40,000 bases of DNA. Source: Ligilactobacillus equi DSM 15833 = JCM 10991 (GTDB taxonomy: Bacteria > Bacillota > Bacilli > Lactobacillales > Lactobacillaceae). Of the stretch, positions 1,761 through 24,981 are shown in pieces. Position 1 is the first letter of the stretch; each line of letters opens with the position of its first letter. Under the pieces are notes generated by a model. The model did not search any database. It was not told where the DNA came from and was given only the letters and a program-made list of their open reading frames with translations. The stretch lies in contig NZ_BAMI01000012.1 of NCBI RefSeq assembly GCF_000615765.1, positions 4,009 through 44,008 on the forward strand. The letters run 5' to 3'. The translations under genes were made by a program, and so were the position numbers.

Positions 1761-2279
1761 ATGGATCAAAAACAAGTTGAGGTGATTTGCGTGGTTGAGT
1801 GGAAAAAAATCAAACTAAAAGAAATATCTAAGGATGGACGTTATATTTGGGATGGTGAGGTACCACAGGATAAGGAAGAAGTTCTTGTTACTAATGGCGA
1901 TATTGTTGACACCGATGTCTGGATTGACGATAACGACTATTCAGGACTAGAATATTACAGTGATTGGAATCAAGCCAATTGGGATCAGTTACCTCTATCA
2001 CCAAAATCAGATACTAGTTCAGATGCTAGTGGGTGGATTAACTTCCAAACACGTCCAACGACGCAAGAAGAAAAAGGCTCTGGTTTAGATTATCCATCTA
2101 TATACGTTTGCAATCTTCCTGATGTTGGGGATGATATTTTGATAAGCGACGGTTACGTAGTCAAAAAAGACCTTTGGGCAGATTTTGAAGATGGAACTGT
2201 TGGCTTATACTATGCAAATGTAGATTATCAAGAATTATGGTGGATGCCAATGCCAAAAGCGCCAAAGAAAGAAGGATGA
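1761..2279 (+). CDS. DUF551-like phage/plasmid protein
   Basis: 172-aa ORF ending ELWWMPMPKAPKKEG, which matches the W-MPLP-PP C-terminal signature of DUF551-type proteins. Confidence 0.5.
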   Translation: MDQKQVEVICVVEWKKIKLKEISKDGRYIWDGEVPQDKEEVLVTNGDIVDTDVWIDDNDYSGLEYYSDWNQANWDQLPLSPKSDTSSDASGWINFQTRPTTQEEKGSGLDYPSIYVCNLPDVGDDILISDGYVVKKDLWADFEDGTVGLYYANVDYQELWWMPMPKAPKKEG

Positions 2280-2282
2280 AAC

Positions 2283-2522
2283 ATGCAATGGATTAAGGTC
2301 GAAGCTCAACCTAAAGAACAGGTAAGCTCACATAATACAGTATTTGATTATCTCAGTGAGATGCCCGAAGATGACCAAGAAATTTTGATGTCTGATGGTC
2401 ACGAAATTTGGATAGAATGTTATAGTTTTTATGATGATGAAACGTCATTTGACGATTATCTTAGCGAAGGCAAAAAAATTTGGTGGATGCCTTTGCCAGA
2501 ATTACCGATAAAATGGGTGTAG
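2283..2522 (+). CDS. DUF551-like protein, short paralog of the upstream gene
   Basis: 79-aa ORF starting 4 nt after the previous stop. C-terminus KIWWMPLPELPIKWV. Shares the ILxSDG ... WWMP(L/M)P layout with 1761-2279. Confidence 0.5.
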   Translation: MQWIKVEAQPKEQVSSHNTVFDYLSEMPEDDQEILMSDGHEIWIECYSFYDDETSFDDYLSEGKKIWWMPLPELPIKWV

Positions 2523-2550
2523 AACTAAAAGTGGTGAGGATGTACGATTA

Positions 2551-3068
2551 ATGAAGTATGGATATGTAATAAGTGGTGATGCAACGCTAGTAGAACAACA
2601 GAAAAGTGTAATGAGAAGTTATGGCATCAATGGGGATGCTTTAATTTTTGGAGCAGTGGGCCAAGTTTTAGATAAGCTTGAACCTAATGATGTCATTTAT
2701 TTCTCGTCTCTCACAGATATTTCTAGCAAGATTCGTGAGATTAATGAGATTGTAGAGCAACTGTGGGAAAAAGAAATTGACATTCAGATAATTTCTCCAG
2801 AGATTAGGCTATCAAGGATTTCTGAAGCCGGTAGTCTCCTGAAAGAATTAATGATAATTTCTCGTTCAGAAACAAGAGAGCGACTTACGCTGCTCGCCAG
2901 AACAAGAAATTAACTGATCCCAACTTCCATACAGGTCCATCCCCAAAAAGAGACGTGGGCCAAGTTGTTCAGTATCGCAAAAGTCATACCACTATCGATA
3001 CTGCTCGGCATTTTGAAATATCCATTTCAACTGTCAAGCGGTACTTACGTAATGCAAAAAACAACTAA
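2551..3068 (+). pseudogene. serine recombinase (resolvase/invertase family), frameshifted and with an atypical catalytic N-terminus
   Basis: The frame-1 ORF (2551-2913) has a resolvase-like N-terminal domain (MKYGYVISGDATLVEQQ ... DVIYFSSLTDISS). The C-terminal HTH (GPSPKRDVGQVVQYRKSHTTIDTARHFEISISTVKRYLRNAKNN*) reads in a different frame to the stop at 3066-3068. The shift lies near 2895-2915. Confidence 0.55.
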
Positions 3069-3086
3069 TAAACATTTATTGAATTG

Positions 3087-3131
3087 AGCGTAACTTTCTC
3101 TTTTTTTAATAAGGGTTACGCTTATTTTTTT
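3087..3131 (+). terminator. rho-independent terminator after the resolvase remnant
   Basis: 8-bp stem AGCGTAAC / GTTACGCT (3087-3094 / 3115-3122) followed by a T-run. Confidence 0.5.
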
Positions 3132-3297
3132 GCTCTGAAAATGCATTAAATTGGGATTCTAAGCTATTTATTTCGTATATTAAACGATAATTAATTTAAT
3201 ATTTTAGTGATTGTTATTGATAAAATACTTTGTTTTTTAAACGAATGTGTTATACTAGAAATGGATAAGCATTACTAACTTTCTAGAAAGAAAACGA

Positions 3298-4056
3298 ATG
3301 CTATTGTTTAGTAAAATCGCAAAAGAGAAAGTAGAGGACATTTTTATGAACGAATTAGAATCTATTGGATCAGAACGTGTCCAAGTGATTAATCACAAGA
3401 TGGATAAATTGATTGAAAAAGACCTTAGAAAAACTATTTTAGAAGTTTATTTGGCTTTCGAAATTTCGGAAGTCTACAGCGAATCAGCTTACCAGCTAAT
3501 TATTTATGGTAAGCGTAATGCTAATAACGAGAACACGTATAGATTTTTAATTGACAACTTAAATATTATGGATCTGTACACTTACGATTATTCAGAAAGA
3601 GATTTAGACGCCTTAAAAGACGATTTAGCCCAAACAGGTAAACGTAATGGTGTCTTACTTGATGTACGACGTATCGCTCAATTGTTAGACTTGAGTCAAT
3701 CGAATATTAGTCGTGCTGTTAAAATGCTAACTAAGACAACTTGTAGCATGTGCGAAGTTGCAGATTTAAACTTAGTGTCAAAAGACGGACTTATTAATAC
3801 TGTTACAAATACACCATATTTCTACCGTAAGATTACTAATAAGGTGATGCGAGCTTTAGCACATAATGGTAGAACTATTCTTACTCAAGAAGAATTAGCG
3901 GAAAGAACTGGTTTGGATTTAGAAAAAATCAAGCATCCCGAGTTATTTTGTCGTAATAAAGATGAATACTTTGATGCGTTGGCTAAAATTCAACAGGCAG
4001 TTGTTCCATACGATTTAGACTGGTTTGGAAAAAGAGGAACTCAAAGAAAGGGGTAG
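3298..4056 (+). CDS. hypothetical DNA-binding (HTH) protein; possible plasmid replication/maintenance protein
   Basis: 252-aa ORF. The ATG at 3346 after GTAGAGGA is the more likely start. HTH-like segment RRIAQLLDLSQSNISRAVKML. Preceded by a 230-bp AT-rich intergenic region. Confidence 0.4.
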   Translation: MLLFSKIAKEKVEDIFMNELESIGSERVQVINHKMDKLIEKDLRKTILEVYLAFEISEVYSESAYQLIIYGKRNANNENTYRFLIDNLNIMDLYTYDYSERDLDALKDDLAQTGKRNGVLLDVRRIAQLLDLSQSNISRAVKMLTKTTCSMCEVADLNLVSKDGLINTVTNTPYFYRKITNKVMRALAHNGRTILTQEELAERTGLDLEKIKHPELFCRNKDEYFDALAKIQQAVVPYDLDWFGKRGTQRKG

Positions 4057-6865: not shown

Positions 6866-8653
6866 GTGGACAAAACCTTTCAAAAGAAGTCTTTTAATCT
6901 AGTTACTGATAACTGGATAAATGTGTTAAATGGGGATTTCGAAATCGAAACAATTAGCTTAAAAGATTTTTTTACACACGCTAAGGATTATATTTCACTA
7001 GCAGGAGAATCAGAAGCACAAAATCTTTCAGTTTTACGTTTTCTGTTAGCTATCATGCACAAGACTTATTCTATCGAAAATGAAGTAAGCCCTACTGATA
7101 ACAAAGAACAAATTGAAAAAGCGGCTCTTAATAAATGGAAACAAATTTACAAGAACTATCGTGCTGATGAAGTGGTAGCTTATTTAGAAGAAAACCAAGC
7201 TAGTTTTGACTTGTTTGGAGATAAGCCTTTCTACCAAGTAACTAGAACTCAATACAATGAGTTAGTTCCAGATAACAAGCAAATCAATGCTAAGAAATTA
7301 AAAGATCTTAATAACAGAGCAAATGATAGTGTGGCTGTAACTGGGACAATTACGGTTAAGCAATTTAAACGTACTATTTCTGAAAGTAGTAATACTCCTA
7401 ATTTATTTGCTTTAGAAAGTGAACGCTACAAGAATAAAATTACATTTGATGAATTAGCTCGCTGGTTAATTAGTTTCCAAGGTTATACAGCCACGTCTGA
7501 CAAAACAGCCATTAAGAACAAAGAAAAATTTAGTAAGTCTCCGGGTTGGCTGTTTAAAATTAATCCTGTTTTTGCAGTAGGGGATGATATGTTTGACACA
7601 CTCATGCTTAATTTAAAACTTGATAGCCCTAATAAGCAAAAACCCGTTTGGGAATATGATAACCCACTAGCTTATATTGATAAGCTTAGAACGCTAGATA
7701 AGCCTAATAATATCACTGAATTATATACAAATTTATCTCGTGCGGTATGTATTGAATGGGATGATTTTGGACGTCCTGCAATCTTCTCAGCAGGGTTACC
7801 ACAATTTGATTCAGCTGATTATTACAACGTAGAGCCTATGACAAGCTGGCGTGTTCTTAAAAAAGATATTGTCTTACCAAATACCAAAAAGCCTGATGAA
7901 TTTACCACAGCCTTATGGCGAAGTATTGGAGAATTCATTCCATTACCACACGTTGAAATTCAAGACGGCACCAAAGACAATTCTAAAAAGAGAAAGTCTC
8001 CTAAAACTAAAAAACCATTACGAGAAACACCTAACGTTGGACTCATGGAGTGGTTAACTTTACTTCGAAATAACAGCATTACAGAGTCAATCTTGACAAA
8101 TAAAACATTGACTTTGAAGAATGTATTGCTACTTAAAAGCCAACAAGCAGACGGCTTGCCAGTAGATGATTTCAATGATTCTTTTGATTTCAATGCAGAC
8201 CTACTTGTCCCAACTGATTCTGACTCTAGTGATTTAGCACATGGTGATGTGAAGTTCTTAATTGCTGATGCTTTAGAACGAATCCGTTTAGTTCACAATG
8301 CTTTAGCGCTAGCAGCTAAAGATATTGCTGAACTACGCTATGGGGAAAAAGGGCAAAACAACTCGAAGTTTGTTAATGAGCAAGTTAAGAGTCTTTATAA
8401 CAAGTTAGATGATAGCTTTAATGAATGGTTTAGTTCCATTGACCCAACAGGTGATTTAGTAGAAAAATCTGACGAGTTAAATGAAGTCCTACGTAAAATT
8501 ACATACAACTTTAAGTCTAAGTTGTATGTAAGTGCTTCTAGCAAAGAAATCAATGGTACTACGGTTGAAACTAAAGCTGGAAAGACCGTCAACAAAAACA
8601 TTTATACTGTTCTTAATTCATTTGATTTTAAAATTAGAAATATTTTGAGGTGA
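6866..8653 (+). CDS. cas8e: Cas8e (Cse1/CasA), type I-E Cascade large subunit
   Basis: 595-aa ORF with a GTG start after a GAGGTGA RBS. The N-terminal FNLVTDNWINV matches the conserved Cse1 N-terminus (E. coli NLLIDNWIPV). First gene of a cas11-cas7-cas5-cas6e series. Confidence 0.88.
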   Translation: MDKTFQKKSFNLVTDNWINVLNGDFEIETISLKDFFTHAKDYISLAGESEAQNLSVLRFLLAIMHKTYSIENEVSPTDNKEQIEKAALNKWKQIYKNYRADEVVAYLEENQASFDLFGDKPFYQVTRTQYNELVPDNKQINAKKLKDLNNRANDSVAVTGTITVKQFKRTISESSNTPNLFALESERYKNKITFDELARWLISFQGYTATSDKTAIKNKEKFSKSPGWLFKINPVFAVGDDMFDTLMLNLKLDSPNKQKPVWEYDNPLAYIDKLRTLDKPNNITELYTNLSRAVCIEWDDFGRPAIFSAGLPQFDSADYYNVEPMTSWRVLKKDIVLPNTKKPDEFTTALWRSIGEFIPLPHVEIQDGTKDNSKKRKSPKTKKPLRETPNVGLMEWLTLLRNNSITESILTNKTLTLKNVLLLKSQQADGLPVDDFNDSFDFNADLLVPTDSDSSDLAHGDVKFLIADALERIRLVHNALALAAKDIAELRYGEKGQNNSKFVNEQVKSLYNKLDDSFNEWFSSIDPTGDLVEKSDELNEVLRKITYNFKSKLYVSASSKEINGTTVETKAGKTVNKNIYTVLNSFDFKIRNILR

Positions 8654-8658
8654 TTATT

Positions 8659-8883
8659 ATGCAGCCACGTAGTGTAAGAATTTACAGTATCGAACCAAAT
8701 GGAAATCGGAAACTACTTGCTACTGTTTTTCAAGCTATATATTATTCTGAAGGCTTTTCTTCTTCGTGGGAGCCAACTGACGCACTTTTAGATGAGATTA
8801 GTTCTCTGAGGAGTGATTTTGCTTATCGGGATTGCGTGCTTGAGGTAACGTCTGGTGATGGAGCCTTTGATGCTAGATACTAG
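8659..8883 (+). CDS. unknown 74-aa protein inserted between cas8e and cas11
   Basis: The ATG at 8659 sits 7 nt after GAGGTGA, which overlaps the cas8e stop, so translation looks coupled. The track ORF 8650-8883 uses an upstream GTG. No family recognised. Not part of canonical I-E operons. Confidence 0.5.
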   Translation: MQPRSVRIYSIEPNGNRKLLATVFQAIYYSEGFSSSWEPTDALLDEISSLRSDFAYRDCVLEVTSGDGAFDARY

Positions 8884-8913
8884 GACTTATGTTATTTCAA
8901 GTAACTTATTAAT

Positions 8914-8963
8914 GCGAGAAATACAGAAAATACGAGATGCGAGAGATATAAGAAACACGAGAG
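8914..8963 (+). repeat. imperfect 25-bp tandem duplication upstream of cas11
   Basis: Units are GCGAGAAATACAGAAAATACGAGAT (8914-8938) and GCGAGAGATATAAGAAACACGAGAG (8939-8963), matching at 19 of 25 positions. It contains four RCGAGA motifs and abuts the cas11 RBS. Confidence 0.6.
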
Positions 8964-8976
8964 GTGGGACGCTTCA

Positions 8977-9585
8977 ATGCCAACAAAAGAAGTCAAGTAC
9001 GCTACTTTAAGAGCGGTAGGTAGAATTTATCGTAATGGTGCAATGAATAAAGCTGTTTTAGCTGATTTTAGGAATGCAACATCTATCGATAAATTACGCT
9101 CACAGGACTCCTTAGAGGCTATTTTAAGTAGTTTAGAGGAAGAGGACCTAAGTGTAACTGGCAATCCTTCAAAGGGCGAAAAAGCCGCTTTTGGAGCCTT
9201 ACACTTATACGCTATTGCACAGCAAAGACAAATTGCTTCTGCTTTAACCTTAACCAAAAAAGAACATGATACATCATTATTTGCTGTCTTAGGTAAATTA
9301 CGGTATGTATCTGATGAATTACGCATTAGTTTAGACCGAGTTTTAAAGCCCGTTCTAACAAGACCTAATTATGAGATGGCTGTACGTGAATTATCACATG
9401 CGCTTAAAATTGCCAAGCAACATGTTCAAAATATGAATATTGATTTTGCTCAACTGGCAGGCGATTTGTACTATATGCAATACAGCTTACAAAGTGCTAG
9501 GAAAGTACAACTACTATGGGCCCAAAAATACTATCGTCCATACAATGTAGTTACTAGTGAAGAAAACAAGGAAAACGCAAAATAA
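8977..9585 (+). CDS. cas11: Cas11 (Cse2/CasB), type I-E small subunit
   Basis: 202-aa helical ORF between cas8e and cas7. Cse2-like segment KAAFGALHLYAIAQQ. Call rests on position and size. Confidence 0.78.
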   Translation: MPTKEVKYATLRAVGRIYRNGAMNKAVLADFRNATSIDKLRSQDSLEAILSSLEEEDLSVTGNPSKGEKAAFGALHLYAIAQQRQIASALTLTKKEHDTSLFAVLGKLRYVSDELRISLDRVLKPVLTRPNYEMAVRELSHALKIAKQHVQNMNIDFAQLAGDLYYMQYSLQSARKVQLLWAQKYYRPYNVVTSEENKENAK

Positions 9586-9600
9586 GAAAGGAATTTCCAA

Positions 9601-10641
9601 ATGACACTATATTTAGATTTATCTGTAATCCAAACTGTTCCATCTGCAAACATCAATCGGGATGAAGTAGGCGCTCCTAAGAAAGCATATTACGGTGGCG
9701 TTTTACGTTCACGTGTATCTTCTCAAGCATGGAAACACGCTATTAGAGAAGATTTTGCTAAAGCTAATGTTGATACCGCATATCGTACTAAGTTAGTTCC
9801 TAAAAAGTTAGCCAAGCTATTACAAGCTAAAAATGGTGATTTATCTGATGAAGAAGCTATGGAATTATCTGTTGCTACTTTAACAAAGGCTAAGATTTCA
9901 GTTACTAAAGACAATGAATTAAGTGCCTTAATGTTTATTAGCAAGGGCCAACTTGAAAAGCTTGCTGATTACGTTTTGGAAAACAAGGAATTAAATGAAG
10001 ATCAGTTAAAAGTGATTTTACAATCTAACAATTCTGCTGATTTAGCCTTATTTGGTCGTATGGTAGCAAGTGATCCTACGCTTTCTGTTGATGCATCTGT
10101 GCAAGTGGCCCACACGATTTCAACTCATGAAATTGTACCTGAATTTGACTACTACACCGCTTTAGATGACTTAAAGACAAGTGCAGGGGCGGCAATGGTA
10201 GGGACTACTGAATATAACTCTGCAACGCTTTTCCGCTATGCAAATATCAATTTAGATGAATTATTGCACAACTTAGGCGACAAGAACATTACTCTTGATT
10301 CAGCAACTCAATTTATCAAGTCATTTATTAGCTCAATGCCTACTGGATACCAAAATGCTTTTGCTAACAAGACTATCCCTGAATATGTAATGCTCACACT
10401 ACGTAATGATACTCCGGTTAACTTGGTATCTGCTTTTGAAGAACCTGTTCAATCAACTAGTGGTTTTTCTCGTAAATCAGTAGAGCAGCTTGAAAAAGAA
10501 TACAAGAATACACTTAAATTCTTAGATGAACCAGTAGCAAACTTTGTATTAAGCAAGTATGACTCATCGTTAGAAGAACAAGTAAATAATCTTGCTGACC
10601 TGTTAGATAAAGTAAAGGATTCCTTTGTAAAGTTGGTGTAA
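9601..10641 (+). CDS. cas7: Cas7e (Cse4/CasC), Cascade backbone subunit
   Basis: 346-aa ORF. N-terminal LSVIQTVPSANINRDEVGAPKKAYYGGVLRSRVSSQAWKHAIR matches the CasC hallmark (N-x-N-R-D ... G-x-P-K ... R-x-R-x-S-S-Q). Confidence 0.92.
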   Translation: MTLYLDLSVIQTVPSANINRDEVGAPKKAYYGGVLRSRVSSQAWKHAIREDFAKANVDTAYRTKLVPKKLAKLLQAKNGDLSDEEAMELSVATLTKAKISVTKDNELSALMFISKGQLEKLADYVLENKELNEDQLKVILQSNNSADLALFGRMVASDPTLSVDASVQVAHTISTHEIVPEFDYYTALDDLKTSAGAAMVGTTEYNSATLFRYANINLDELLHNLGDKNITLDSATQFIKSFISSMPTGYQNAFANKTIPEYVMLTLRNDTPVNLVSAFEEPVQSTSGFSRKSVEQLEKEYKNTLKFLDEPVANFVLSKYDSSLEEQVNNLADLLDKVKDSFVKLV

Positions 10642-10644
10642 GTT

Positions 10645-11400
10645 ATGCGGACATTAACAATTAGACTAACTGGTGTTTTTCAATCTTACGGTGGAGAAAC
10701 AAATTTTTCTAGGAGAGGAACTAAGCCTTATCCTACAAAAAGTTCAATCATTGGAATGATTGCCGCTTCTCTTGGCTACAGACGTGATGACGATGCACAA
10801 ATCAACGAATTAAATAAATTGAATTATGCTGTTCGAATCGAGCAACTTGGCGATGTAACAACTGATTTCCATATTGTTCATTATGAAGGATACATCACTG
10901 GTAATAGGGGCCAGGTTAGCGGTTCTAAAATCACTTATCGAGACTATTTGCAAGATACAGTATTTTTAGTTGCTATTAGCAGTGAAGATGATGAGTTAAT
11001 TAATACAATTCGTCATTCACTAGCTCATCCCAAATTTCAACTATTTCTCGGTCGACGAGCAAGTGCTCCGGCAGGCGTTTTAAAGACAAGTATTTTTCCA
11101 AATATGACACCAATTCAGGTCTTAGAAAATGAGTCTTGGCAAGCAGCAGATTGGTATAAAAAACGTTTGAGAAAGTCTGAAGTAGCCTTAAAAATAGTAG
11201 CTGATGTTCAACTACTAAAAGGGCAGAAATACAAAATTTCTAGAGATACAGTTATCTCATTTTCTGAAAAAAAGCGAAAACATGGTTATCGAGGAATTGC
11301 AACTAAAACTGTTAAAGTTGCTAATGATAAGTATGTTGCTACTTCAACAAAGCATGATCCGTTATCGTTTTTTGAAACTGAAGTAATCGCGACAAAGTGA
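10645..11400 (+). CDS. cas5: Cas5e (CasD)
   Basis: 251-aa ORF. N-terminal LTIRLTGVFQSYGGETNFSRRGTKPYPTKSSIIGMIAASLGYRRDD matches the CasD pattern (L-x-G-P-x-Q-S-W-G ... R-x-T ... P-T-K-S ... G-L-x-A-A-A-L-G). Confidence 0.9.
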   Translation: MRTLTIRLTGVFQSYGGETNFSRRGTKPYPTKSSIIGMIAASLGYRRDDDAQINELNKLNYAVRIEQLGDVTTDFHIVHYEGYITGNRGQVSGSKITYRDYLQDTVFLVAISSEDDELINTIRHSLAHPKFQLFLGRRASAPAGVLKTSIFPNMTPIQVLENESWQAADWYKKRLRKSEVALKIVADVQLLKGQKYKISRDTVISFSEKKRKHGYRGIATKTVKVANDKYVATSTKHDPLSFFETEVIATK

Positions 11401-11436
11401 TGACGAAAAACATTGATTTGACAATGTTTCTTTAGT
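11401..11436 (+). promoter_or_regulatory. short leader of CRISPR array 1
   Basis: Only 36 nt separate the cas5 stop from the first repeat. Shares TTGACAA and AATGTTTYTTTAG with the leader of array 2. Confidence 0.5.
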
Positions 11437-11908
11437 GCATTCCCTACGTATGTAGGGGTGAACCTCAAGGTCTAAGAAAAGACCGACGCTATAAAACGCA
11501 TTCCCTACGTATGTAGGGGTGATCCTGACAGTCATACTAAAAGTTATAGAAGGGAGGGGCATTCCCTACGTATGTAGGGGTAATCCTGCTGAGTACATTA
11601 TTGAACAAGTTGATGAAGGAAATTTCCTACGTATGTAGGGGTAATCCTATCACTCCTGCAGCGGTTCATAATTTCAAGGAGTAGTCCCCACGTATGTAGG
11701 GGTGATCCTGCTGTGTTAATACTGGGGGAAACTGCAGATTCAGTTGTTCCCTATGTATGTAGGTGTGGCTCTATCGGCTTTTTGCGTGTTTCTTAAATGA
11801 TGTTCCCTACTGTTATGGGTGTTTTCCTGTATGTGTCTTCCTGTGTTCAAGGGCGATATTAGCTTGTATATTTGAAAGTTGTTTCCTACTTTTATTGTAG
11901 GAGTTTTA
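11437..11908 (+). CRISPR. CRISPR array 1 (type I-E repeat), located between cas5 and cas6e
   Basis: Six 28-nt repeats start at 11437, 11498, 11559, 11620, 11681 and 11744 (GCATTCCCTACGTATGTAGGGGTGAWCC). Period is 61 nt and spacers are 33 nt, the last 35. Decayed repeat-like units follow at ~11799-11828 and 11881-11908. Palindromic core is CCCTAC-GTAT-GTAGGG. Orientation is the same as the E. coli I-E repeat. Confidence 0.9.
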
Positions 11909-11923
11909 TAGAAAGGAAAAATT

Positions 11924-12541
11924 ATGTATTATTTATCACGAGTAGAAATTAACAATAAGAATGCAAAAGAAATTAAAGAATTCAACCACTTAGGTGCTTA
12001 CCATAATTGGGTAGAGCAAATGTTTCCTGAAAATATTGAAAATGGTGTTCGCCCACGTCATTTATGGCGTATTGATATCTTAAATGGTGTAAAATATCTA
12101 TTAGTACTAAGTGAAGAAAAACCTGATTTGGATATTTTAGAAAGTCATGGTATAAAAGGAACTGGAATTATTAAGGAATATGATAAGTTGCTAGACACCA
12201 TTAAAATAGATTCAGTATTAAAGTTTCGCTTAACAGCCAATCCTGTACGCCAATTTAATGGAAAAGCATATCCTCACGTTACCGTAAAACAACAAAGAAA
12301 GTGGTTGTTAGATAGAGCTGAAGCTAACGGCTTTACGTTAGATGATAATTACTTTACAATCGTTAGTCGTGATTATGTTCCATTAAAACGGAAAAATAGC
12401 AGAGGTTGCAATTTAAGTCGGGTATCTTTTGAAGGTATTTTAAAGGTAACTGATGTTGATAGCTTTAAAGATATATTAGTTAATGGCTTAGGGAGAGAAA
12501 AGGCGTTTGGTATGGGACTCATGACTGTTGTCCCATTTTAG
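11924..12541 (+). CDS. cas6: Cas6e (CasE) crRNA endoribonuclease
   Basis: 205-aa ORF with a GAAAGGA RBS. N-terminal MYYLSRVEIN and C-terminal GLGREKAFGMGLMTVVPF match CasE hallmarks (M-Y-L-S-R ... G-I-G-R-A-K-A-F-G-C-G-L-L). Confidence 0.9.
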   Translation: MYYLSRVEINNKNAKEIKEFNHLGAYHNWVEQMFPENIENGVRPRHLWRIDILNGVKYLLVLSEEKPDLDILESHGIKGTGIIKEYDKLLDTIKIDSVLKFRLTANPVRQFNGKAYPHVTVKQQRKWLLDRAEANGFTLDDNYFTIVSRDYVPLKRKNSRGCNLSRVSFEGILKVTDVDSFKDILVNGLGREKAFGMGLMTVVPF

Positions 12542-12604: not shown

Positions 12605-13364
12605 GTGTTCCCTACGTATGTAGGGGTAATCCCGTCCAAGCTTATCTTGAAATGCCTTAGCTGCTGTGTTCCCTACGTATGTAGGGGTAATCCCTCAAGC
12701 TGGTCTTCCTCGAGCGCCCTTTTTTCGTGTTCCCTACGTATGTAGGGGTAATCCTAAAAGTGGCCACGGAGGATTAGGCGGTAATAAGTGTTCCCTACGT
12801 ATGTAGGGGTGAACCTTCTCGTTTTGCTGGTGGGGCGGACATGGGTTCGTGTTCCCTACGTATGTAGGGGTGAACCTTAAAGGTTGGGAAGAAGAACTAA
12901 GGACGGGAAGTGTTCCCTACGTATGTGGGGGTGAACCTGCAAATGTCCCTGCTCGTCCAAAAGACGCCCAGTGTTCCCTACGTATGTAGGGGTAATCCTA
13001 TATATACATTCAAACCTTGATATTAGCAATTGTGTTCCCTACGTATGTAGGGGTAATCCTGGTGCAGCTGACAAGACTAACCAAGTTAAGACGTGTTCCC
13101 TATGTATGTAGGGGTGAGCCTGATTAGTAATGGTATCTTGGTTGCTCTTGATAGGTGTTCCCTACGTATATGGGGGGTGAGCCTATATGTTCAAACCTTG
13201 ATATAGCAAGTAGTGTTCCCCACGTACGTGGAGGTGATTCCGTAGGTGAGGGTAAACCTGTAACACCGGGGTGTACGTTTCTTATTCCCTATGCTTGTAG
13301 GTGTGAACCCATAGATACTATGGATACTATATTTTCTTGTTCCCTATTTATGTAGGTGTGAGTC
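12605..13364 (+). CRISPR. CRISPR array 2 (type I-E), 13 repeats / 12 spacers
   Basis: Repeats start at 12605, 12666, 12727, 12788, 12849, 12910, 12971, 13032, 13093, 13155, 13213, 13282 and 13337. Consensus is GTGTTCCCTACGTATGTAGGGGTAATCC. The first nine sit on an exact 61-nt period. The last four are decayed, and the last four spacers are irregular (34, 29, 41 and 27 nt). Confidence 0.95.
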
Positions 13365-13407
13365 TGTAGAAGTTATTGAGGTTATCCAAAATTAAATAAG
13401 TAGTGCA

Positions 13408-13448
13408 TTTCTTATGTACATTCGCATAAGAAACAAGAAACTTTTTTC
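13408..13448 (+). terminator. putative terminator after array 2
   Basis: 9-bp stem TTTCTTATG / CATAAGAAA (13408-13416 / 13425-13433) with a T-run a few nt downstream. Confidence 0.4.
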
Positions 13449-13496
13449 AATAATGATATTTTGTTCTTTTTTGGCTACAATAAAGATTGAAATTTA

Positions 13497-13524
13497 TTGA
13501 CATTTTATCATTTTGAATTATAAT
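13497..13524 (+). promoter_or_regulatory. near-consensus sigma-70 type promoter
   Basis: TTGACA (13497-13502), 16-nt spacer, TATAAT (13519-13524). Lies ~60 nt upstream of the 13581 ORF. Confidence 0.5.
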
Positions 13525-13580
13525 TAATTTTAAAGAACAAAAACTTATAATTTAAAACCACAAAAAAGAACAGGAAGTGA

Positions 13581-14282
13581 GTGGAATCAATGGTTGAAAC
13601 TACGTTAAAGTCAAATATTGGCTTATCCTTGTGCGCATGGCTTGATTATTTGATTAGCAAGGGGATGATTTCTCGCAACAATAGAGATTATTTATCTGAT
13701 GTGATTTTAGAAATGGTATCAATGATGGGTTTACAAAAAAAGCCTGATATGCCTGAAAAAACACATATTATCAAATATCAGTACACCGATGATGTTGCTA
13801 AGTATAATGAGCATCAAAGAGAAGAGTTTTTAGCAAGTCTTAATCAGATTGGTTTCAACAATCAGTGCCAAATAGCAGATAAACTCTTTGACCAAGAAGT
13901 CCTGTTAGAAAAAGAAGTAGTGAATCTTAGCGATTATGTTGAGGTAAACAACTTAGGTAGTGATAATCCAATGTATGCACTAATTACAGAGTGGAATCAT
14001 GTGGTTAGATTGCTAAATAACTATTTAACTAAACTAGCGAAAAATGGGAAATATTCTGAAAACACAGTATCTGAATTTAGTGGGTTCATTGAACAAATGA
14101 TTGTTCTTTCTGGAATAACACGTTCATACAGGAACGGTTATTTGTTTGAACATAATGTGTATCTAACAGATATGTTTGAATCTTTAGCTCATGACTTAAA
14201 GCTAATAGGCTTTGAATATTGGAACTCTGTGAATAGCGATGATGAAGAATACCTGACGATTGCATATCCCGTTGCAAAATAA
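13581..14282 (+). CDS. hypothetical protein with two-fold internal repeat
   Basis: 233-aa ORF. The ATG at 13590 after AGGAAGTGAG is the likely start. Two similar halves (YLISKGMISRNNRDYLSDVILEMVSMMG versus YLTKLAKNGKYSENTVSEFSGFIEQMIVLSG). No family recognised. Confidence 0.45.
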   Translation: MESMVETTLKSNIGLSLCAWLDYLISKGMISRNNRDYLSDVILEMVSMMGLQKKPDMPEKTHIIKYQYTDDVAKYNEHQREEFLASLNQIGFNNQCQIADKLFDQEVLLEKEVVNLSDYVEVNNLGSDNPMYALITEWNHVVRLLNNYLTKLAKNGKYSENTVSEFSGFIEQMIVLSGITRSYRNGYLFEHNVYLTDMFESLAHDLKLIGFEYWNSVNSDDEEYLTIAYPVAK

Positions 14283-14307
14283 TACATAAGAAGGTTGGTG
14301 TAGTGGT

Positions 14308-14508
14308 ATGTCAGACTTGAATACACAATATGAAAAAATAGGGAAAGAATTAGTTACTCAATTAGGATATGATCCAAGAGTACTTGAATTTGCTAATGAA
14401 GATAATGGTCTTAGTGATTGGTACTGGGGGAAGGTATCAGAAATATTAGAAAATCGATGGCTTTTGAACTGCGTTAAAGAGTACTATGAGTCTTGTGTTA
14501 ATTGCTAG
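14308..14508 (+). CDS. hypothetical small protein
   Basis: 66-aa ORF with an AAGGTTGGTG RBS region. No motif recognised. Confidence 0.35.
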   Translation: MSDLNTQYEKIGKELVTQLGYDPRVLEFANEDNGLSDWYWGKVSEILENRWLLNCVKEYYESCVNC

Positions 14509-14710
14509 AGTAATGAAAGATGGTGATATGGTGAAGCACTATGGTCGTCATAAGGATAATCATTATTACAAGGGAATTAAAAATATTTTCTACCGAAAGC
14601 AGCATAGTTCCTGCGAAACTAAAAAGATACAGTATGCGACTAAACTGGATGCACTTATCGATATATCAGCGATACAGTACCAGAAAAAGAAAAACCGATG
14701 TCAACAGTAA
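14486..14710 (+). pseudogene. 5' part of a small gene apparently interrupted by the IscB element
   Basis: 74-aa ORF (likely start MKDGDMVKHY at 14513) that stops exactly where the structured omega-RNA region begins. A start-less C-terminal fragment in the same orientation lies at 16455-16571. Confidence 0.3.
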
Positions 14711-15040
14711 CCCCTCTATTCACTGAAGTAAGGGGCTTGAAATGAAAGTTTTAAGTCTGCTCACTTTGATGAGGATTCTGGAGCAATTCAGAATTTGTTG
14801 TCTAGACTAAGCAATCAGCTTCGGCTGATTGGAAAACTACGTTATTTTAGTCATCATACCTTATGAATGATACCCTAGTTTTAAGCTCTATGGAGGATAG
14901 TAAACAAGGATAAGGTTAATGTCCTAGTCGGCCCCTCATAACAAGCTAAAATAACATTGTCGAAGGGTAACCACATGTAACTGTTAGTTCTCTGATAGTT
15001 GCGTGATAAGGTACATGCTACCTTATAAAAAATGAAAGGA
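14711..15040 (+). ncRNA. putative IscB omega-RNA scaffold (guide expected at or just upstream of the 5' edge)
   Basis: 340-nt ORF-free gap directly upstream of iscB on the same strand. Stable hairpins: CCCCT..AGGGG (14711-14735), ATTCTG..CAGAAT (14775-14794), CAATCAGC-TTCG-GCTGATTG with a UUCG tetraloop (14812-14831), and ATAAGGTA-CATGC-TACCTTAT (15006-15026) abutting the RBS. IscB omega-RNAs are known to be encoded in exactly this position. Confidence 0.6.
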
Positions 15041-15050
15041 GAAAATCAAA

Positions 15051-16391
15051 ATGCAAAATCGAGTTTTTGTCATTAATAAACATGGTGAAGCTTTAATGCC
15101 TTGCAAACCGAGAACTGCTAGAAAATTATTACAAAGTGGCAAGGCTAAGCCTATTAAGAAAGAACCATTCACCATTCAACTATTGTACGGTGCAAGTGGT
15201 TATAAGCAACCTATTAACTTAGGTGTTGATAGCGGGCAACGTCACATTGGGCTTGCGGTAACAAGTCAAGATAAAGTTTTATTTCAAAGCGAAGTCGAAT
15301 TGCGCCAAGACGTTAAGAAACTTCTTGAAAGAAGAAAAACTTATCGTCAAGGTAGACGGAACCGTAAGACACGTTACCGTCCAATGCGTTTTTTAAATCG
15401 CATCAAAAGTAGAAAAAATAACTGGTTGCCACCGTCGGTACAAAGTAAAGTTAATCACAACATTAATTGGATTAAACGCATGTTAACGGTGTTACCAAAC
15501 CCTGAATTACACATCGAAGTTGGTAAATTCGATATGCAAAAAATGAAAGACCCTGCCATTAAAGGTGAAGGTTATCAAAAAGGGGACTTGTACGGCTATC
15601 AAACGGTTAAGCAATACGTCTTAGCTCGTGACCAATATAAATGCCAAGTCTGCAAGAAAAAAGGCGGTAAGTATAAAGGAAAAATCGTTAAACTCAAAAT
15701 TCACCACATTATTTACCGCTCACAGGGTGGTACCAATGCCCCTGCTAACTTAATTACCGTTTGTGCTGATTGCCACACTTATCAAAATCATCAACCAGGT
15801 GGCATCTTATATGCCTGGTATCAGAAGAAAAAGAAAGTAACTAAGCCTTTGAAAGGCGCAACCTTTATGAATATTCTCCGTAGGAGATTATGGAATGCCT
15901 TTCCTGATGCCAAGTTCCAGTATGGGGCGCAAACCACTTTACAACGGGCAAATTTAGGCTTGGCAAAATCGCACTACAATGATGCCGTTACAATTAGTGG
16001 TATTGAACATATTAGTGAAAAGCCAACAAGTATCGTGATGTTTAAACAATTTCGCAAGAAAAAGCGTTTCTTACACGAAGCAACCGCACGCAAAGGATGT
16101 AAAGACAAGGAAGGGCACAGAAACAAGAATGTCACCAGTAAACGGAATGCCAAAAACACCAAAGAAGCAAACGGCTTTTGGCTTAATGATTATGTCAGAA
16201 TCAAGAACAGTAAACTTAAAGGCTACATTAGTGGCTTTACAGGGAGTTCCTGTTATATCAAGGATTGTCTTGGCAATTATCTGACTCTTAATACGTACAA
16301 GCAAACAAACTTGTCTAATGTTGAATTTATTAATCATAGAAATAATTGGTGTAATACCAGTATTTCCGAACAAAGATACGTTATGGAATAA
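15051..16391 (+). CDS. iscB: IscB, RNA-guided RuvC/HNH nuclease (Cas9 ancestor family)
   Basis: 446 aa. PLMP domain (KHGEALMPCKPRTARKLL). RuvC-I (LGVDSGQRHIGLAV). Arg-rich bridge helix (RRKTYRQGRRNRKTRYRPMRF). RuvC-II (ELHIEVGKFD). HNH (CQVCKKKG ... IHHIIYRSQGGTNAPANLITVCADCH). RuvC-III (KSHYNDAVTI). C-terminal TID-like domain. AAAGGAG RBS. Confidence 0.87.
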   Translation: MQNRVFVINKHGEALMPCKPRTARKLLQSGKAKPIKKEPFTIQLLYGASGYKQPINLGVDSGQRHIGLAVTSQDKVLFQSEVELRQDVKKLLERRKTYRQGRRNRKTRYRPMRFLNRIKSRKNNWLPPSVQSKVNHNINWIKRMLTVLPNPELHIEVGKFDMQKMKDPAIKGEGYQKGDLYGYQTVKQYVLARDQYKCQVCKKKGGKYKGKIVKLKIHHIIYRSQGGTNAPANLITVCADCHTYQNHQPGGILYAWYQKKKKVTKPLKGATFMNILRRRLWNAFPDAKFQYGAQTTLQRANLGLAKSHYNDAVTISGIEHISEKPTSIVMFKQFRKKKRFLHEATARKGCKDKEGHRNKNVTSKRNAKNTKEANGFWLNDYVRIKNSKLKGYISGFTGSSCYIKDCLGNYLTLNTYKQTNLSNVEFINHRNNWCNTSISEQRYVME

Positions 16392-16454
16392 AAGAAGAAA
16401 TAGAAAGGAGTCAGCTTTTCAAGCTGAGAGCTATCCATCCCACAACTAAAGTAA

Positions 16455-16571
16455 CGGGATTTCCGCTCAATTATCATTAAATCATTTTCGGATGTACCAC
16501 TTAGAGCATATCGGTGCAAATACTGTGGGCAGTGGCACATGACTCATTATCGTGATTATTATGATGAGTAA
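16455..16571 (+). pseudogene. start-less 3' fragment of a small zinc-ribbon-like gene
   Basis: Open frame from the stop at 16452-16454 to the TAA at 16569-16571: RDFRSIIIKSFSDVPLRAYRCKYCGQWHMTHYRDYYDE*. It has no start codon and a C-x2-C-x3-H tail. Confidence 0.3.
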
Positions 16572-16575
16572 AAAA

Positions 16576-16618
16576 GATAAATAACCGTTAACTGGTAACA
16601 GCTAACGGTTATTTTTGG
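16576..16618. terminator. bidirectional rho-independent terminator shared by the iscB side and the convergent helicase
   Basis: 10-bp stem ATAACCGTTA / TAACGGTTAT (16581-16590 / 16603-16612), with an A-run before it and a T-run after. Confidence 0.7.
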
Positions 16619-16645
16619 TTTGTATTCTGTATGATAAGAAATAAG

Positions 16646-19012
16646 CTAATTTTGAAAAGAGTTAGGATACTTAATTTCGTCCAGTAGCGGACTAGCTTTG
16701 CCAACGTAATAATCAATGTAAAGCTTCTTCTTAGCTCTAGTCATCCCCACGTAGAGAAGTCTGCGTTCGTCTTCAACGAATTTTGAATGAGCCATAATTT
16801 CTGCATAGAACATTCTCATAGCAGTTCTAAGTTGTGTATTTTCTTCTACCATTTTGCTAAGCATTCCTTCTGTACTTAAAGATTGAATAATCTTTAATCT
16901 ATCACTAGGTTGAAGGTCGTCCAACTTGTATACATCTTCAAAGTACATTTCACATGCATTAGGACTAATTCCTAGCAATGCACCTAGTACATAAGCCATT
17001 GAATCAAAACTACCATAGTCCATTAAATCTTCCAAATCTGAGTAATTAAACAAGGTATAAAACTCTTCAAAAGTGGTATCGGCAGGAAATGCTTTGGATA
17101 TTGCCATTAAATCATCAGTTAAATCACTATCAGTAAGCCCGTACAGGTAAACGTTGTCCCATTCAAGTCCCTTTGATCCATGTAGGGTATCAAGCTTAAT
17201 AGAGGGCTGTTTGGTATCTGTGAGGTTATTACCGTTATTAACTATGGCTGAAAGAAGTCTAAGATTTCTATCTTGAGATTCTTCTAATTCTTCAAATTCG
17301 CTAAATTTCTTCGTCAACTTATAGAGATAGTTTTTAATTGTTTCAACTCTTTCTGAAGAGTAGACATGGTATATCTTAGTCATGCGTTGAAAGTATAAAT
17401 TGGTTATAAGGTCAACTTCTCGCAAATACTTTGATAAGTCCTTTTCTTTCTTGTGTTTCATTTTTTCAAATTTTCTGTGACATCTAATTACTTCTAAATC
17501 ACTGTCATCAGCAACATCATCATCATTTGTGCCTATTACCCAGTTAACATAATTAGTAATGGTGTTGATTTTCCGATATCGAACAACGCTTTTTAGTTTT
17601 TTGGCATATTTTCCAAACCCAATTCTGTTTGCGTAATTTGCTAGTAAGATAAAATCGTCATAATAAAAGGCCTTTATTAATCCCATAAAAACGTCATATA
17701 CTTTGTCATTTTGCAAAATATTACTAGAACTACCTACATCAAGATAAACGTCCTTATACGCTAAAACATCGGCTATAACGGGCTTATCTTTATTGTATCT
17801 AACTAGAATAGCACTTGATTCATTGGGGCTATTCGCTAAGTTTTTGAGCATTTTCTCAAAGAACTCATCCCCATGATTTCCTTCTTTACTTTCAATCTTA
17901 TAGACTTTTCCACCTTTATTAAATGCTTTAAGGGACTTTTCTAGTCTTAGTGTATTTTTAGTGATTACTGGAATTACACTATCTAAAATATTCCCACCAG
18001 TACGATAGTTGGTAGATAAGTTAAAGGTGACAGAATAATTGACAAACGTTGAGAACTTTTGAATAAAGTCAGGGGATGATCCTCTAAAAGAGTAAATGGA
18101 TTGGTCATCATCCCCAATAACCATTAGCTGCTCAAAAGATTTTTCAGAGAAAATACGATTCATCAATGCCCATTGTAAAGCGTTAATATCTTGGAACTCA
18201 TCAATAACGATAACGTTCCACCTACGCATCATTACACCTTTTATCTTAGATTGTAATCTCTCGTCATTTAACGCAACATAGAGAAGCTTTTGCATGTCTT
18301 CAAAGTCAATCTGTTGGTTACGTTCTTTTAGCGAGCTATATTCTTTGAGAGCATAAATATAATTTTCAACCCATCCTTTGTTAAGATATTGATCAGAAAC
18401 TAAACTGATAAGTTCTTCAACGGATAATTCTTTCTTCTCAACCATGGCTAAATAGTCCTGAATTGCTGTTGAATTATAATTAGGGTCTAACCCGTTAGAA
18501 CTGAGCATTCGATTGACTAACTGGCTTTTAACTTCAAATATTTGTTTCAACGATTCAGAATTGGTTAATTCTTTGCTTTTATTGGGTAACTTAAAATAAG
18601 TAATGTAGTGTTTGTATTCACTAGGTAATACGCTAACAGTTTTATATTGGGGCATGTAGAACCTTAGCAACTTATAGAAGAAAGCGTGAAAAGTAAAGAA
18701 ACTAGGACTGCCCCAATCACTAATATTAATACCTAATATTTGAACACGCTTAATATATTCGTTATATCTTTCTCTCATGTCTAATTGAGCTTTCTTCGAG
18801 AACGTAATTCCTAACACATCATGTGGTCTGCTATTTCCAATAAGTGCATTATAGATGATTGTTAGCATAAAGATAGTCGTTTTACCTGAACCAGCGCATG
18901 CATTAACAAGAGTGGGGTGTGCGATTCCTTCTTTAAGAATATTTTTTTGTTCATTCGATAGTTTAAATTTACCGATTAATTCGATAATCTTAAGAGCTTC
19001 ATTTTGATCCAT
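16646..19012 (-). CDS. UvrD/PcrA/Rep-like SF1 DNA helicase
   Basis: 788 aa. Walker A CAGSGKTT. Motif II VIVIDEFQD. Motif III VIGDDDQSIYSFRGS. Motif IV NYRTGGNI. Motif V TLHGSKGLEWDNVYL. Motif VI LLYVGMTRAKKKLYI. GAGGAA RBS. Long insertion between motifs IV and V. Confidence 0.87.
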   Translation of the reverse strand: MDQNEALKIIELIGKFKLSNEQKNILKEGIAHPTLVNACAGSGKTTIFMLTIIYNALIGNSRPHDVLGITFSKKAQLDMRERYNEYIKRVQILGINISDWGSPSFFTFHAFFYKLLRFYMPQYKTVSVLPSEYKHYITYFKLPNKSKELTNSESLKQIFEVKSQLVNRMLSSNGLDPNYNSTAIQDYLAMVEKKELSVEELISLVSDQYLNKGWVENYIYALKEYSSLKERNQQIDFEDMQKLLYVALNDERLQSKIKGVMMRRWNVIVIDEFQDINALQWALMNRIFSEKSFEQLMVIGDDDQSIYSFRGSSPDFIQKFSTFVNYSVTFNLSTNYRTGGNILDSVIPVITKNTLRLEKSLKAFNKGGKVYKIESKEGNHGDEFFEKMLKNLANSPNESSAILVRYNKDKPVIADVLAYKDVYLDVGSSSNILQNDKVYDVFMGLIKAFYYDDFILLANYANRIGFGKYAKKLKSVVRYRKINTITNYVNWVIGTNDDDVADDSDLEVIRCHRKFEKMKHKKEKDLSKYLREVDLITNLYFQRMTKIYHVYSSERVETIKNYLYKLTKKFSEFEELEESQDRNLRLLSAIVNNGNNLTDTKQPSIKLDTLHGSKGLEWDNVYLYGLTDSDLTDDLMAISKAFPADTTFEEFYTLFNYSDLEDLMDYGSFDSMAYVLGALLGISPNACEMYFEDVYKLDDLQPSDRLKIIQSLSTEGMLSKMVEENTQLRTAMRMFYAEIMAHSKFVEDERRLLYVGMTRAKKKLYIDYYVGKASPLLDEIKYPNSFQN

Positions 19013-19279
19013 ATAACTCGTTCCTCGTGTTTATTTAGAGTGTTTTTCTAATGCATTAATGTCTATCTAACGTATGCAGTATGACGTTACACATTCTCGT
19101 CAACGTGAGTAGGTAGGACAGTTGAATATATAGGGGATGGTTTGTAGAGAGGCTTCTCCATTTTAACTGCTATATAAAATGTGTTCCTTTCTATCGTACT
19201 ATCATATTTTTAGAGGCGAGGGGGGAGTGTATCGCATAATGTACTGTATACCGCAAATTGTTACTTTTTAAACAATACC

Positions 19280-19308
19280 ATTTTATAACGTTTCGTTATA
19301 AAAATCAA
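19280..19308 (-). promoter_or_regulatory. promoter with palindromic operator in the spacer (copy 1, upstream of helicase)
   Basis: Minus strand reads TTGATT (19308-19303), 17 nt, TAAAAT (19285-19280). The spacer is filled by the palindrome TATAACGTTTCGTTATA (19284-19300). Confidence 0.6.
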
Positions 19309-19571
19309 TACATTTGCTAGAGTGCTTTAGGAATATAGCTTTATAAAAAAATTTGCGTAAATAAAAACCGCTCCAAACTCCCAATTTCAAGCGGTTAAGT
19401 TTACCTATAAACGTGCCGTCGACCGACAGCTAAGAAGGATGGGTATTAGCGTACCTGTCCTTTTTCATTTGCCATTATAAGCTATATAGTACTTGCAAGT
19501 CAACACTAATAACTTATAGCAGCGGATGAACTAATAACGTCATAATATGAGGGTAAAAAACAATATAAGGG

Positions 19572-24787: not shown

Positions 24788-24903
24788 ATTTTTCTTCCTT
24801 TCTAAGTCCTAAGTAGTCTTAATCTAATTAATCTAATTTTTAATAATAATTATAACTTTTGGCACGGAAAAAAGCACGTAAGAAAATATTGCTCAATGCT
24901 AAG

Positions 24904-24981
24904 TTACTTAATTTTGTTACTTAATTTTGTTACTTAATTTTGTTACTTAATTTTGTTACTTAATTTTGTTACTTAATTTTG
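24904..24981 (+). repeat. six perfect tandem copies of the 13-bp unit TTACTTAATTTTG (iteron or centromere-like)
   Basis: Exact copies at 24904, 24917, 24930, 24943, 24956 and 24969. Confidence 0.95.

Follow-up and report, generated by a model that had tools for sequence, protein, structure and literature searches.

In Geobacillus stearothermophilus, the element ISGst5 is a non-autonomous insertion sequence (IS) of the IS605 family that carries iscB (GstIscB) and, upstream of it, a HEARO-type omega-RNA that is delimited by the right end (RE) of the transposon. In IscB elements the omega-RNA sits at the RE, the target-adjacent motif (TAM) is located 5' of the left end (LE), the orientation is biased towards that of the upstream gene and a tnpA gene occurs nearby for only ca. 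1.5% of the iscB genes (Meers et al., bioRxiv 10.1101/2023.03.14.532601). The sequence analysed here, hereafter the window, is a stretch of 40,000 nt from contig NZ_BAMI01000012.1 of Ligilactobacillus equi DSM 15833, in which positions 14700 to 16476 very probably constitute a non-autonomous element of the IS200/IS605 family having IscB and its omega-RNA as sole cargo (Table 1). An intact IscB-omega-RNA element in a Lactobacillaceae context had been proposed in an initial annotation of this DNA, and both parts of that proposal are borne out, the first by the Pfam and HEARO matches, the RefSeq name and the structural matches to IscB, and the second by the host itself.

Several features are common to this element and ISGst5 (10.1101/2023.03.14.532601), namely a guide taken from the flanking DNA, an AT-rich pentanucleotide TAM located 5' of the LE, ends that also occur in co-resident elements carrying tnpA and tnpB, and co-orientation with the upstream gene. 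The two differ in their motifs, the predicted TAM being TTTAA or TTCAA and the terminal motif TTGAC in the present case whereas TTCAT and TTCAC are found in Geobacillus, and in their host, which is here a mesophilic, AT-rich lactobacillus in which the copies are few and diverged (ca. 82% identity).

The iscB product displays, in this order, an RRXRR domain with a PLMP-type motif, RuvC-I, an Arg-rich bridge helix, RuvC-II, an HNH domain, RuvC-III and a beta-rich C-terminal domain. The RRXRR profile (PF14239) was matched over its full length by residues 5-178 (E = 1.5e-61) and the Pfam HNH profile was also matched (E = 6.5e-12). Of the hallmarks expected of an IscB, the split RuvC, the Arg-rich bridge helix and the HNH domain were recovered; the motif at residues 14-17 reads ALMP and not PLMP as had been noted. 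An identical protein exists in the databases (WP_025020664.1 / KRL78238.1) under the name "RNA-guided endonuclease IscB [Ligilactobacillus equi]". When compared by phmmer to proteins of solved structure, it matched only IscB, IsrB and early Cas9 proteins, with scores of 1e-35 for TbaIscB and 9e-32 for OgeuIscB.

Alignment with OgeuIscB (7xht) revealed no catalytic substitution, a point on which the initial annotation could have failed: the RuvC residues D60, E156 and H308/D311 correspond to D61, E193 and H340/D343 and the HNH residue H219 to H247, and the two CxxC pairs (C198/C201 and C238/C241) are kept. Across 35 homologs, neither these catalytic positions nor the four cysteines binding zinc show any variation. 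The bridge helix RRKTYRQGRRNRKTRYR (residues 94-110) aligns with the corresponding region of OgeuIscB; in the AlphaFold model a helix is predicted at residues 89-103 with a low predicted local distance difference test (pLDDT) value, as expected since the RNA is absent from the model. Overall, this model has a pLDDT of 78.7 and its best Foldseek match in the PDB is 8csz_D (E = 2.4e-22), the ten best matches all being IscB or IsrB complexes with Cas9 structures only distant. Residues 372-446, the candidate TAM-interacting part, form a confident beta-rich domain (pLDDT 85-92); this C-terminal part has no sequence alignment to solved IscBs, and the full-length Foldseek alignments to IscB structures span ca. 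520 columns.

With the OgeuIscB-omega-RNA complex (PDB 7utn, 7xht, 8csz), the L. equi system has in common the domain order, the catalytic residues and the RNA family. It differs in that its protein is 50 residues shorter and only ca. 21% identical over the structure alignment, in that the C-terminal, putatively TAM-interacting region does not align in sequence, and in that its omega-RNA has two lineage-specific insertions. The predicted TAM also differs, being TTRAA for the window element. OgeuIscB recognises NWRRNA.

Much closer relatives, having 71-87% identity and the same omega-RNA and end motifs, occur on megaplasmids of Ligilactobacillus salivarius and on chromosomes of L. equi, L. agilis and Limosilactobacillus mucosae, in which insertion sites and guides all differ. 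These proteins are of 433-435 residues, compared to which the window copy has 13 additional residues in two insertions. Further relatives, at 44-55% identity, were detected by scanning GTDB genomes with the protein. In one of the related loci (L020, IMGVR_UViG_2529292852_000001), iscB is cut to 318 codons by a stop and the sequence downstream is unrelated; the same viral genome also carries a full copy (L018). The truncated gene provides a further case of element decay.

The region upstream of iscB supplies the second line of evidence. It contains a full-length match to HEARO (RF02033), the Rfam family of IscB omega-RNAs, with 91.3 bits for a gathering score of 83 (E = 1.9e-17), so that the covariance-model search suggested at the outset gave a positive answer. 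The ORF-free, hairpin-rich character that had been noticed over 340 nt (14711-15050) is also confirmed: a region of 370 nt folds far better than its shuffles (z = -4.7) and the UUCG stem-loop is located at 14812-14831. A consensus fold computed with RNAalifold from nine relatives comprises 80 pairs, 24 of which show compensatory changes, and adds two 3' hairpins, at ca. 14978-15004 and ca. 15005-15030, that lie outside the Rfam model; an insertion at ca. 14748-14790 and the UUCG hairpin are common only to the L. equi copies. Of 15 related loci that were scanned, 14 have a HEARO match preceding iscB, with scores of 86-126 bits; L019 is the exception, and in it only 147 nt are present upstream of iscB.

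Where the element begins and ends was defined by comparing the window with L008 (L. equi DPC 6820), L009 (a metagenome), L018, L020 and L029 (IMG/VR), L103 (the same genome) and L098 (an L. salivarius plasmid), the ends being set by eight independent insertions with different flanks. Every related locus is similar from G14700 onward (GTCAACAGTAACC...). In contrast, the conserved GTCAACAG start is preceded by 16-20 nt that are different in each of the seven loci compared. This variable stretch was therefore taken as the guide, to which a length of 16 nt is assigned by analogy with characterised IscB omega-RNAs. The guide had first been placed at ca. 14695-14711, which overlaps the present prediction, but positions 14700-14711 already belong to the scaffold. 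The predicted guide does lie at the junction that had been called left, although in IS200/IS605 terms this junction is the right end of the transposon. The RE contains a subterminal hairpin with CCCCT/AGGGG arms at 14711-14737 (DNA fold of -4.8 kcal/mol). No second match to the guide exists within the window, nor was any second copy or solo end detected there when up to 3-6 mismatches were allowed.

At the opposite extremity the order is GCTATCC, hairpin, GGATTTCCGC, ca. 10 nt and TTAAA, with flanks diverging past 16481. The element thus runs to 16476 and not to ca. 16454 as first assumed. The spacer found between the iscB stop and the LE is absent from L008 and L009, is similar in L029 and is partial in L103. 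On the top strand of the IS, the pentamer abutting the LE reads TTTAA for the window as well as for L098 and L009, and TTCAA for L008, L029, L018 and L100 (the resident tnpA-tnpB element, see below), that is one or the other in 7 of 8 loci, which points to a TTRAA consensus for the TAM, located 3' of the target when the iscB strand is read. The immediate flanks (...CCGAT and TCATT...) are not repeats, indicating an insertion without target-site duplication. An empty site was found neither by protein search nor, in metagenome contigs, by exact matching of the left-flank/gap/right-flank pattern (0 matches); for two relatives, the corresponding pattern gave 0 matches in viral contigs, and phage genomes searched by megablast with the L009 locus gave no match. 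Its absence from the collections searched is no evidence against insertion.

As initially reported, tnpA is lacking: no ORF of at least 120 aa in the window has a Y1_Tnp domain, and the element is therefore regarded as non-autonomous. A likely source of transposase was suggested by a BLAST search of plasmids, in which annotated iscB genes were detected in three L. salivarius plasmids and the terminal block alone (53-62 nt), without iscB, in twelve more. In the L. salivarius plasmid pIBB3154_1 (L098), this block, 85% identical to the LE of the window, directly follows an IS200/IS605 tnpA that is divergent from tnpB, which identifies the block as the LE of an element of the IS605 type. At its opposite extremity (RE; positions 480-512 of L098), this element reads TCAACTCACCCCAG...GGGGCTTG and resembles positions 14701-14740 of the window. 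A TnpA (P0125) that is 84% identical to that of L. salivarius is encoded beside a tnpB on contig AZFH01000161 of the same L. equi assembly, and the LE of this resident element (L100, DSM 15833) has the same architecture and ends in TTGAA. Both elements display the GCTATCC box, a hairpin, the GGATTTCCGC box and TTRAA at the LE as well as an RE ending in ...GGGG(N)TTGAC; unlike the window element they carry tnpA and TnpB, which is Cas12-like, instead of IscB, and their guide RNA is located at the 3' end of tnpB. Since the LE block is common to IS605 elements having both tnpA and tnpB, one of which occurs in the same genome, mobilisation in trans is plausible.

The same genome also contains a second IscB-HEARO copy (L103; GCA_001435735.1, contig AZFH01000052, positions 2190-3843), 81.6% identical to the first. 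It has the segment following the iscB stop up to GTCAGCTTTT, diverges after the equivalent of position 16419 and has no LE block, and appears to be an end-truncated, immobilised copy. The existence of this copy also explains the breaks, at 14786 and 16363, that Logan assemblies of the strain show within the element.

These data also bear on a different explanation of the gene, as a stand-alone HNH homing or phage-packaging endonuclease, or as a proto-Cas9 effector using the neighbouring array of clustered regularly interspaced short palindromic repeats (CRISPR). Old annotations name the protein "HNH endonuclease" or "paclitaxel/taxanoid biosynthesis susceptibility protein TS1", several relatives lie among small same-strand genes of prophage appearance, and the array ends at 13364, 1.34 kb away from the element, in agreement with the 1.3 kb initially given. 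This explanation is however highly improbable, as the split RuvC and RRXRR/PLMP region occur with a HEARO RNA directly upstream, the ends match those of tnpA-carrying IS605 elements, and the array has 28-nt repeats of type I-E, lies beside cse1-cse2-cas7-cas5-cas6e and contains no spacer or repeat related to the element. Assignment to a type II CRISPR-Cas9 system was rejected on the same type I-E array with its Cascade genes and on the size of the protein, which at 446 aa has no recognition (REC) lobe. When all spacers were compared to the element, the window and all fetched IscB loci, only chance matches of 12-14 nt were obtained, and the element and the array are considered functionally unrelated. 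That the window copy is the cargo of a prophage was likewise rejected because its neighbours are defence genes (Cascade, a GajB-like helicase, type II restriction-modification and AbiD) and not phage genes; a distant BLAST of the element against phages gave no match.

For the IscB-omega-RNA element, a mode of expression and of maintenance can be proposed. No promoter-like site was detected just upstream of the guide; a perfect sigma-70 consensus promoter precedes the co-oriented unit formed by ORF230, ORF A and ORF B (see Table 1 and below). This arrangement fits the read-through transcription proposed for IscB elements, and this promoter is the likely source of the transcript carrying the guide into the omega-RNA. 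Read-through from this operon would probably yield an RNA in which positions 14684-14699 are fused to a scaffold extending from 14700 to ca. 15030 and to which, by homology, IscB with its full set of RuvC and HNH catalytic residues would bind. A Y1 TnpA acting in trans, such as that encoded on the other contig, could then excise the element. By analogy with described systems, the predicted donor joint would read ...CCGAT/TTAAATCATT..., the rejoined donor site being AAAAAGAAAAACCGAT-TTAAA. As this combines a match to the guide with a TAM, IscB would be expected to cleave this site, after which the element would be regained through homologous repair on a sister copy. In the occupied site the match to the guide is followed by the GTCAA of the scaffold, which is not a TAM, and self-cutting would therefore not be expected.

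Whether the element still operates in this manner was weighed separately from its identity. A fully functional system, that is an active, compact IscB of 446 aa with an omega-RNA enlarged by two L. equi-specific insertions and a TTRAA TAM, expressed by read-through from an operon of the defence island and mobilised by a resident TnpA that also serves TnpB, is a tentative and rather unlikely proposal. A stranded fossil, still recognisable but no longer mobile and possibly no longer cutting, which would be kept as neutral DNA in the island, is rather unlikely as well. The latter is suggested by changes that set the window copy apart from 34 aligned relatives and that constitute a caveat for activity: an in-frame insertion KYKGKIV (residues 207-213) in the loop of the HNH domain that leads from the first CxxC to the catalytic HH, a second one, CKDKEG (residues 350-355), in the basic linker following RuvC-III, and S340F at a nearly invariant position. 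The HNH loop in question varies in length between IscBs. In addition, the LE hairpin of the window has lost its inner stem and is weak (5-6 bp, -2.8 kcal/mol, z = -0.5, no better than shuffles) when homologous LEs have stems of 7-10 bp with compensatory changes and that of the autonomous L. salivarius element reaches -6.8 kcal/mol (z = -3.2). The loss of the whole LE block in L103 indicates that decay of such elements is under way in the strain, and the low identity between the copies of the genome argues against a recent burst.

Further points weigh against a functional and precisely delimited element. The LE hairpin of the resident TnpA element differs in sequence from that of the window; the HEARO score of the window falls towards the bottom of the range covered by the 15 copies scored, with only L003 (87.0) and L038 (85.8) below it; the pentamer of L019 is deviant (TTCTT on the top strand, AAGAA on the iscB strand); and the exact cleavage positions and the five-nucleotide TAM are derived from the comparison of loci, without an empty site. 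The fossil hypothesis has to face the fact that the ORF is open over 446 codons with all catalytic and zinc-binding residues kept, that the omega-RNA is still above the Rfam gathering score, that the conserved boxes of the LE and the motifs at the two termini are preserved, and that a related tnpA exists in the genome. Indeed, 4 substitutions were counted in the window copy at columns that are at least 90% conserved, for a family range of 0-11, and because this number is normal "intact" is a fair label for the IscB. Present-day nuclease activity is given roughly even chances, and present-day mobility, made uncertain by the weak LE hairpin, poorer ones.

The element is an ordinary one, its protein being already recorded as IscB in RefSeq, and adds little beyond one more case of IscB with an omega-RNA; its architecture, its homing logic and the sharing of a transposase with TnpB elements have already been demonstrated experimentally in Geobacillus. 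Its practical value lies in a defined candidate guide and scaffold, both ends and a putative TTRAA TAM in lactobacilli, in which small endogenous editors are wanted, and in a genome found to hold both a likely mobilising tnpA and a second, end-truncated copy. If functional, the system would be a programmable nuclease native to Lactobacillaceae and, at the same time, a second example in nature of a single transposase that serves both Cas9-like and Cas12-like ancestors.

Table 1. Features of the IscB element and of its surroundings (window coordinates)
Feature	Position	Strand	Remarks
Whole element, 1777 bp	14700-16476	iscB on +; IS top strand (LE to RE) is -	Similarity to L008, L009, L018, L020, L029, L103 and L098 from 14700 to the TTRAA motif
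Predicted 16-nt guide AAAAAGAAAAACCGAT	14684-14699	+	Flanking DNA just outside the transposon right end
Transposon right end (RE)	14700-14745	-	Omega-RNA end; terminal motif TTGAC, reverse complement of 14700-14704
Omega-RNA scaffold	14700-15050	+	Rfam HEARO core 14703-14974
iscB, 446 aa	15051-16391	+	ATG start; ribosome-binding site AAAGGAG at 15035-15041
Extra spacer after iscB stop, 39 nt	16392-16430	+	Small hairpin GTCAGCTTTTCAAGCTGAG at 16411-16429, reaching the 3' edge of the spacer
Transposon left end (LE), block of ca. 46 nt	16431-16476	-	GCTATCC box, hairpin with ATCCC/GGGAT arms, GGATTTCCGC box
Putative TAM TTAAA	16477-16481	+	Read on the iscB strand, lies 3' of the target; read on the IS top strand, is TTTAA and lies 5' of the LE
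Sigma-70 consensus promoter TTGACA-16-TATAAT, perfect	13497-13524	+	Consensus match only
Left flank, ORF B, 74 aa	14486-14699	+	Possibly the 5' portion of an orphan gene that was interrupted
Right flank, open frame (fragment C) SFSDVPLRAYRCKYCGQWHMTHYRDYYDE, then stop	16482-16571	+	Direct reading of the sequence
cse1-cse2-cas7-cas5-cas6e (Cascade)	6866-12541		Upstream of the element
Type I-E CRISPR array, 13 repeats of 28 nt	12605-13364		Upstream of the element
GajB-like UvrD helicase	16646-19012	-	Downstream of the element, opposite strand

The two flanks had been interpreted as the halves of a single small gene of the zinc-ribbon type, and the element may have interrupted a gene composed of ORF B and fragment C. 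It is the element that supplies ORF B with its final three codons and its stop. On the right side, the frame is open from 16455 to a stop at 16569-16571, as had been described for a fragment starting at 16455, but positions 16455-16481 correspond to the terminal block of the element and to the TAM and not to the flanking gene. Joining 14699, TTAAA and 16482 brings fragment C in frame with ORF B and yields an ORF of 102 aa, followed 8 nt further on by a strong bidirectional terminator (16579-16614). Against this, ORF B and fragment C could be frames left open by chance where an operon becomes AT-rich at its 3' side, the insertion having then taken place in non-coding DNA next to a TTTAA site, and the two alternatives are about evenly balanced. 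By chance, one join in three would be in frame; the uninterrupted homolog that was to be sought was not found among 5.8 billion proteins, which contain no relative of the reconstructed product, whether or not ORF A is included; and neither ORF B nor the rebuilt or fused products gave any match in Pfam or PADLOC, ORF B having no database homolog either. In codon usage, ORF B scores 0.08 and fragment C -0.04, compared to 0.40 +/- 0.17 for real genes, yet both values are intermediate, that of ORF B being well above the -0.66 +/- 0.23 of off-frame readings, ORF B has been called as a gene in public annotations, and the in-frame join occurs at boundaries that were derived independently.

The zinc-ribbon label itself derives from two CxxC motifs, the first in fragment C and the second terminal in ORF A, which is in a different frame. 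The combination of ORF A and ORF B into one frameshifted zinc-ribbon gene was not adopted, as the product has no homolog and its CxxC pairs, which come together only after the extra frameshift between the two ORFs, would be ca. 85 residues apart. ORF230 and ORF A (66 aa), at 13581-14508 behind the consensus promoter, have coding-like codon usage but no Pfam, PADLOC or database homolog; this pair of orphans lies in the interval that separates the IscB element from the CRISPR array.

The element is located inside a defence island of this horse-gut bacterium. Beyond the UvrD-type helicase, which is of 788 aa with a best PADLOC match to GajB (6.8e-41), lie a type II restriction enzyme and its methyltransferase followed by AbiD. 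No GajA-like partner adjoins the helicase, only small ORFs and a helix-turn-helix gene being found upstream of it. The type I-E operon of the window is not preceded by a cas3 gene, the interval from cas6e to the array is devoid of cas1-cas2, and a gap of 524 nt separates the end of cas5 (11400) from the start of cas6e (11924) without explanation.

Finally, the window is nearly identical to contig AZFH01000155 of the GenBank assembly of the same strain (GCA_001435735.1), positions 12605-19555 being identical. Single-base indels and one indel of 13 nt distinguish the two (19555, 23644, 24465, 11863 and 24903-24915); all are outside the element and may correspond to assembly or homopolymer errors or to real differences. 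The GenBank assembly has one extra leader-proximal spacer, TGTTAAATTCGACAATTTAGGTACTCAGCCAAG, absent from the window at 12605 (reverse-complement coordinate 1927 of L001), the remaining 12 spacers being identical, which indicates a recent gain or loss of a spacer between two sequenced isolates or assemblies. The final four repeats of the array are degenerate, and the spacers at 12999-13031 and 13183-13212 are near-duplicates (...ATACATTCAAACCTTGATATTAGCAA... and ...ATGTTCAAACCTTGATATAGCAAG...), suggesting either an internal duplication of the array or repeated acquisition from one target.

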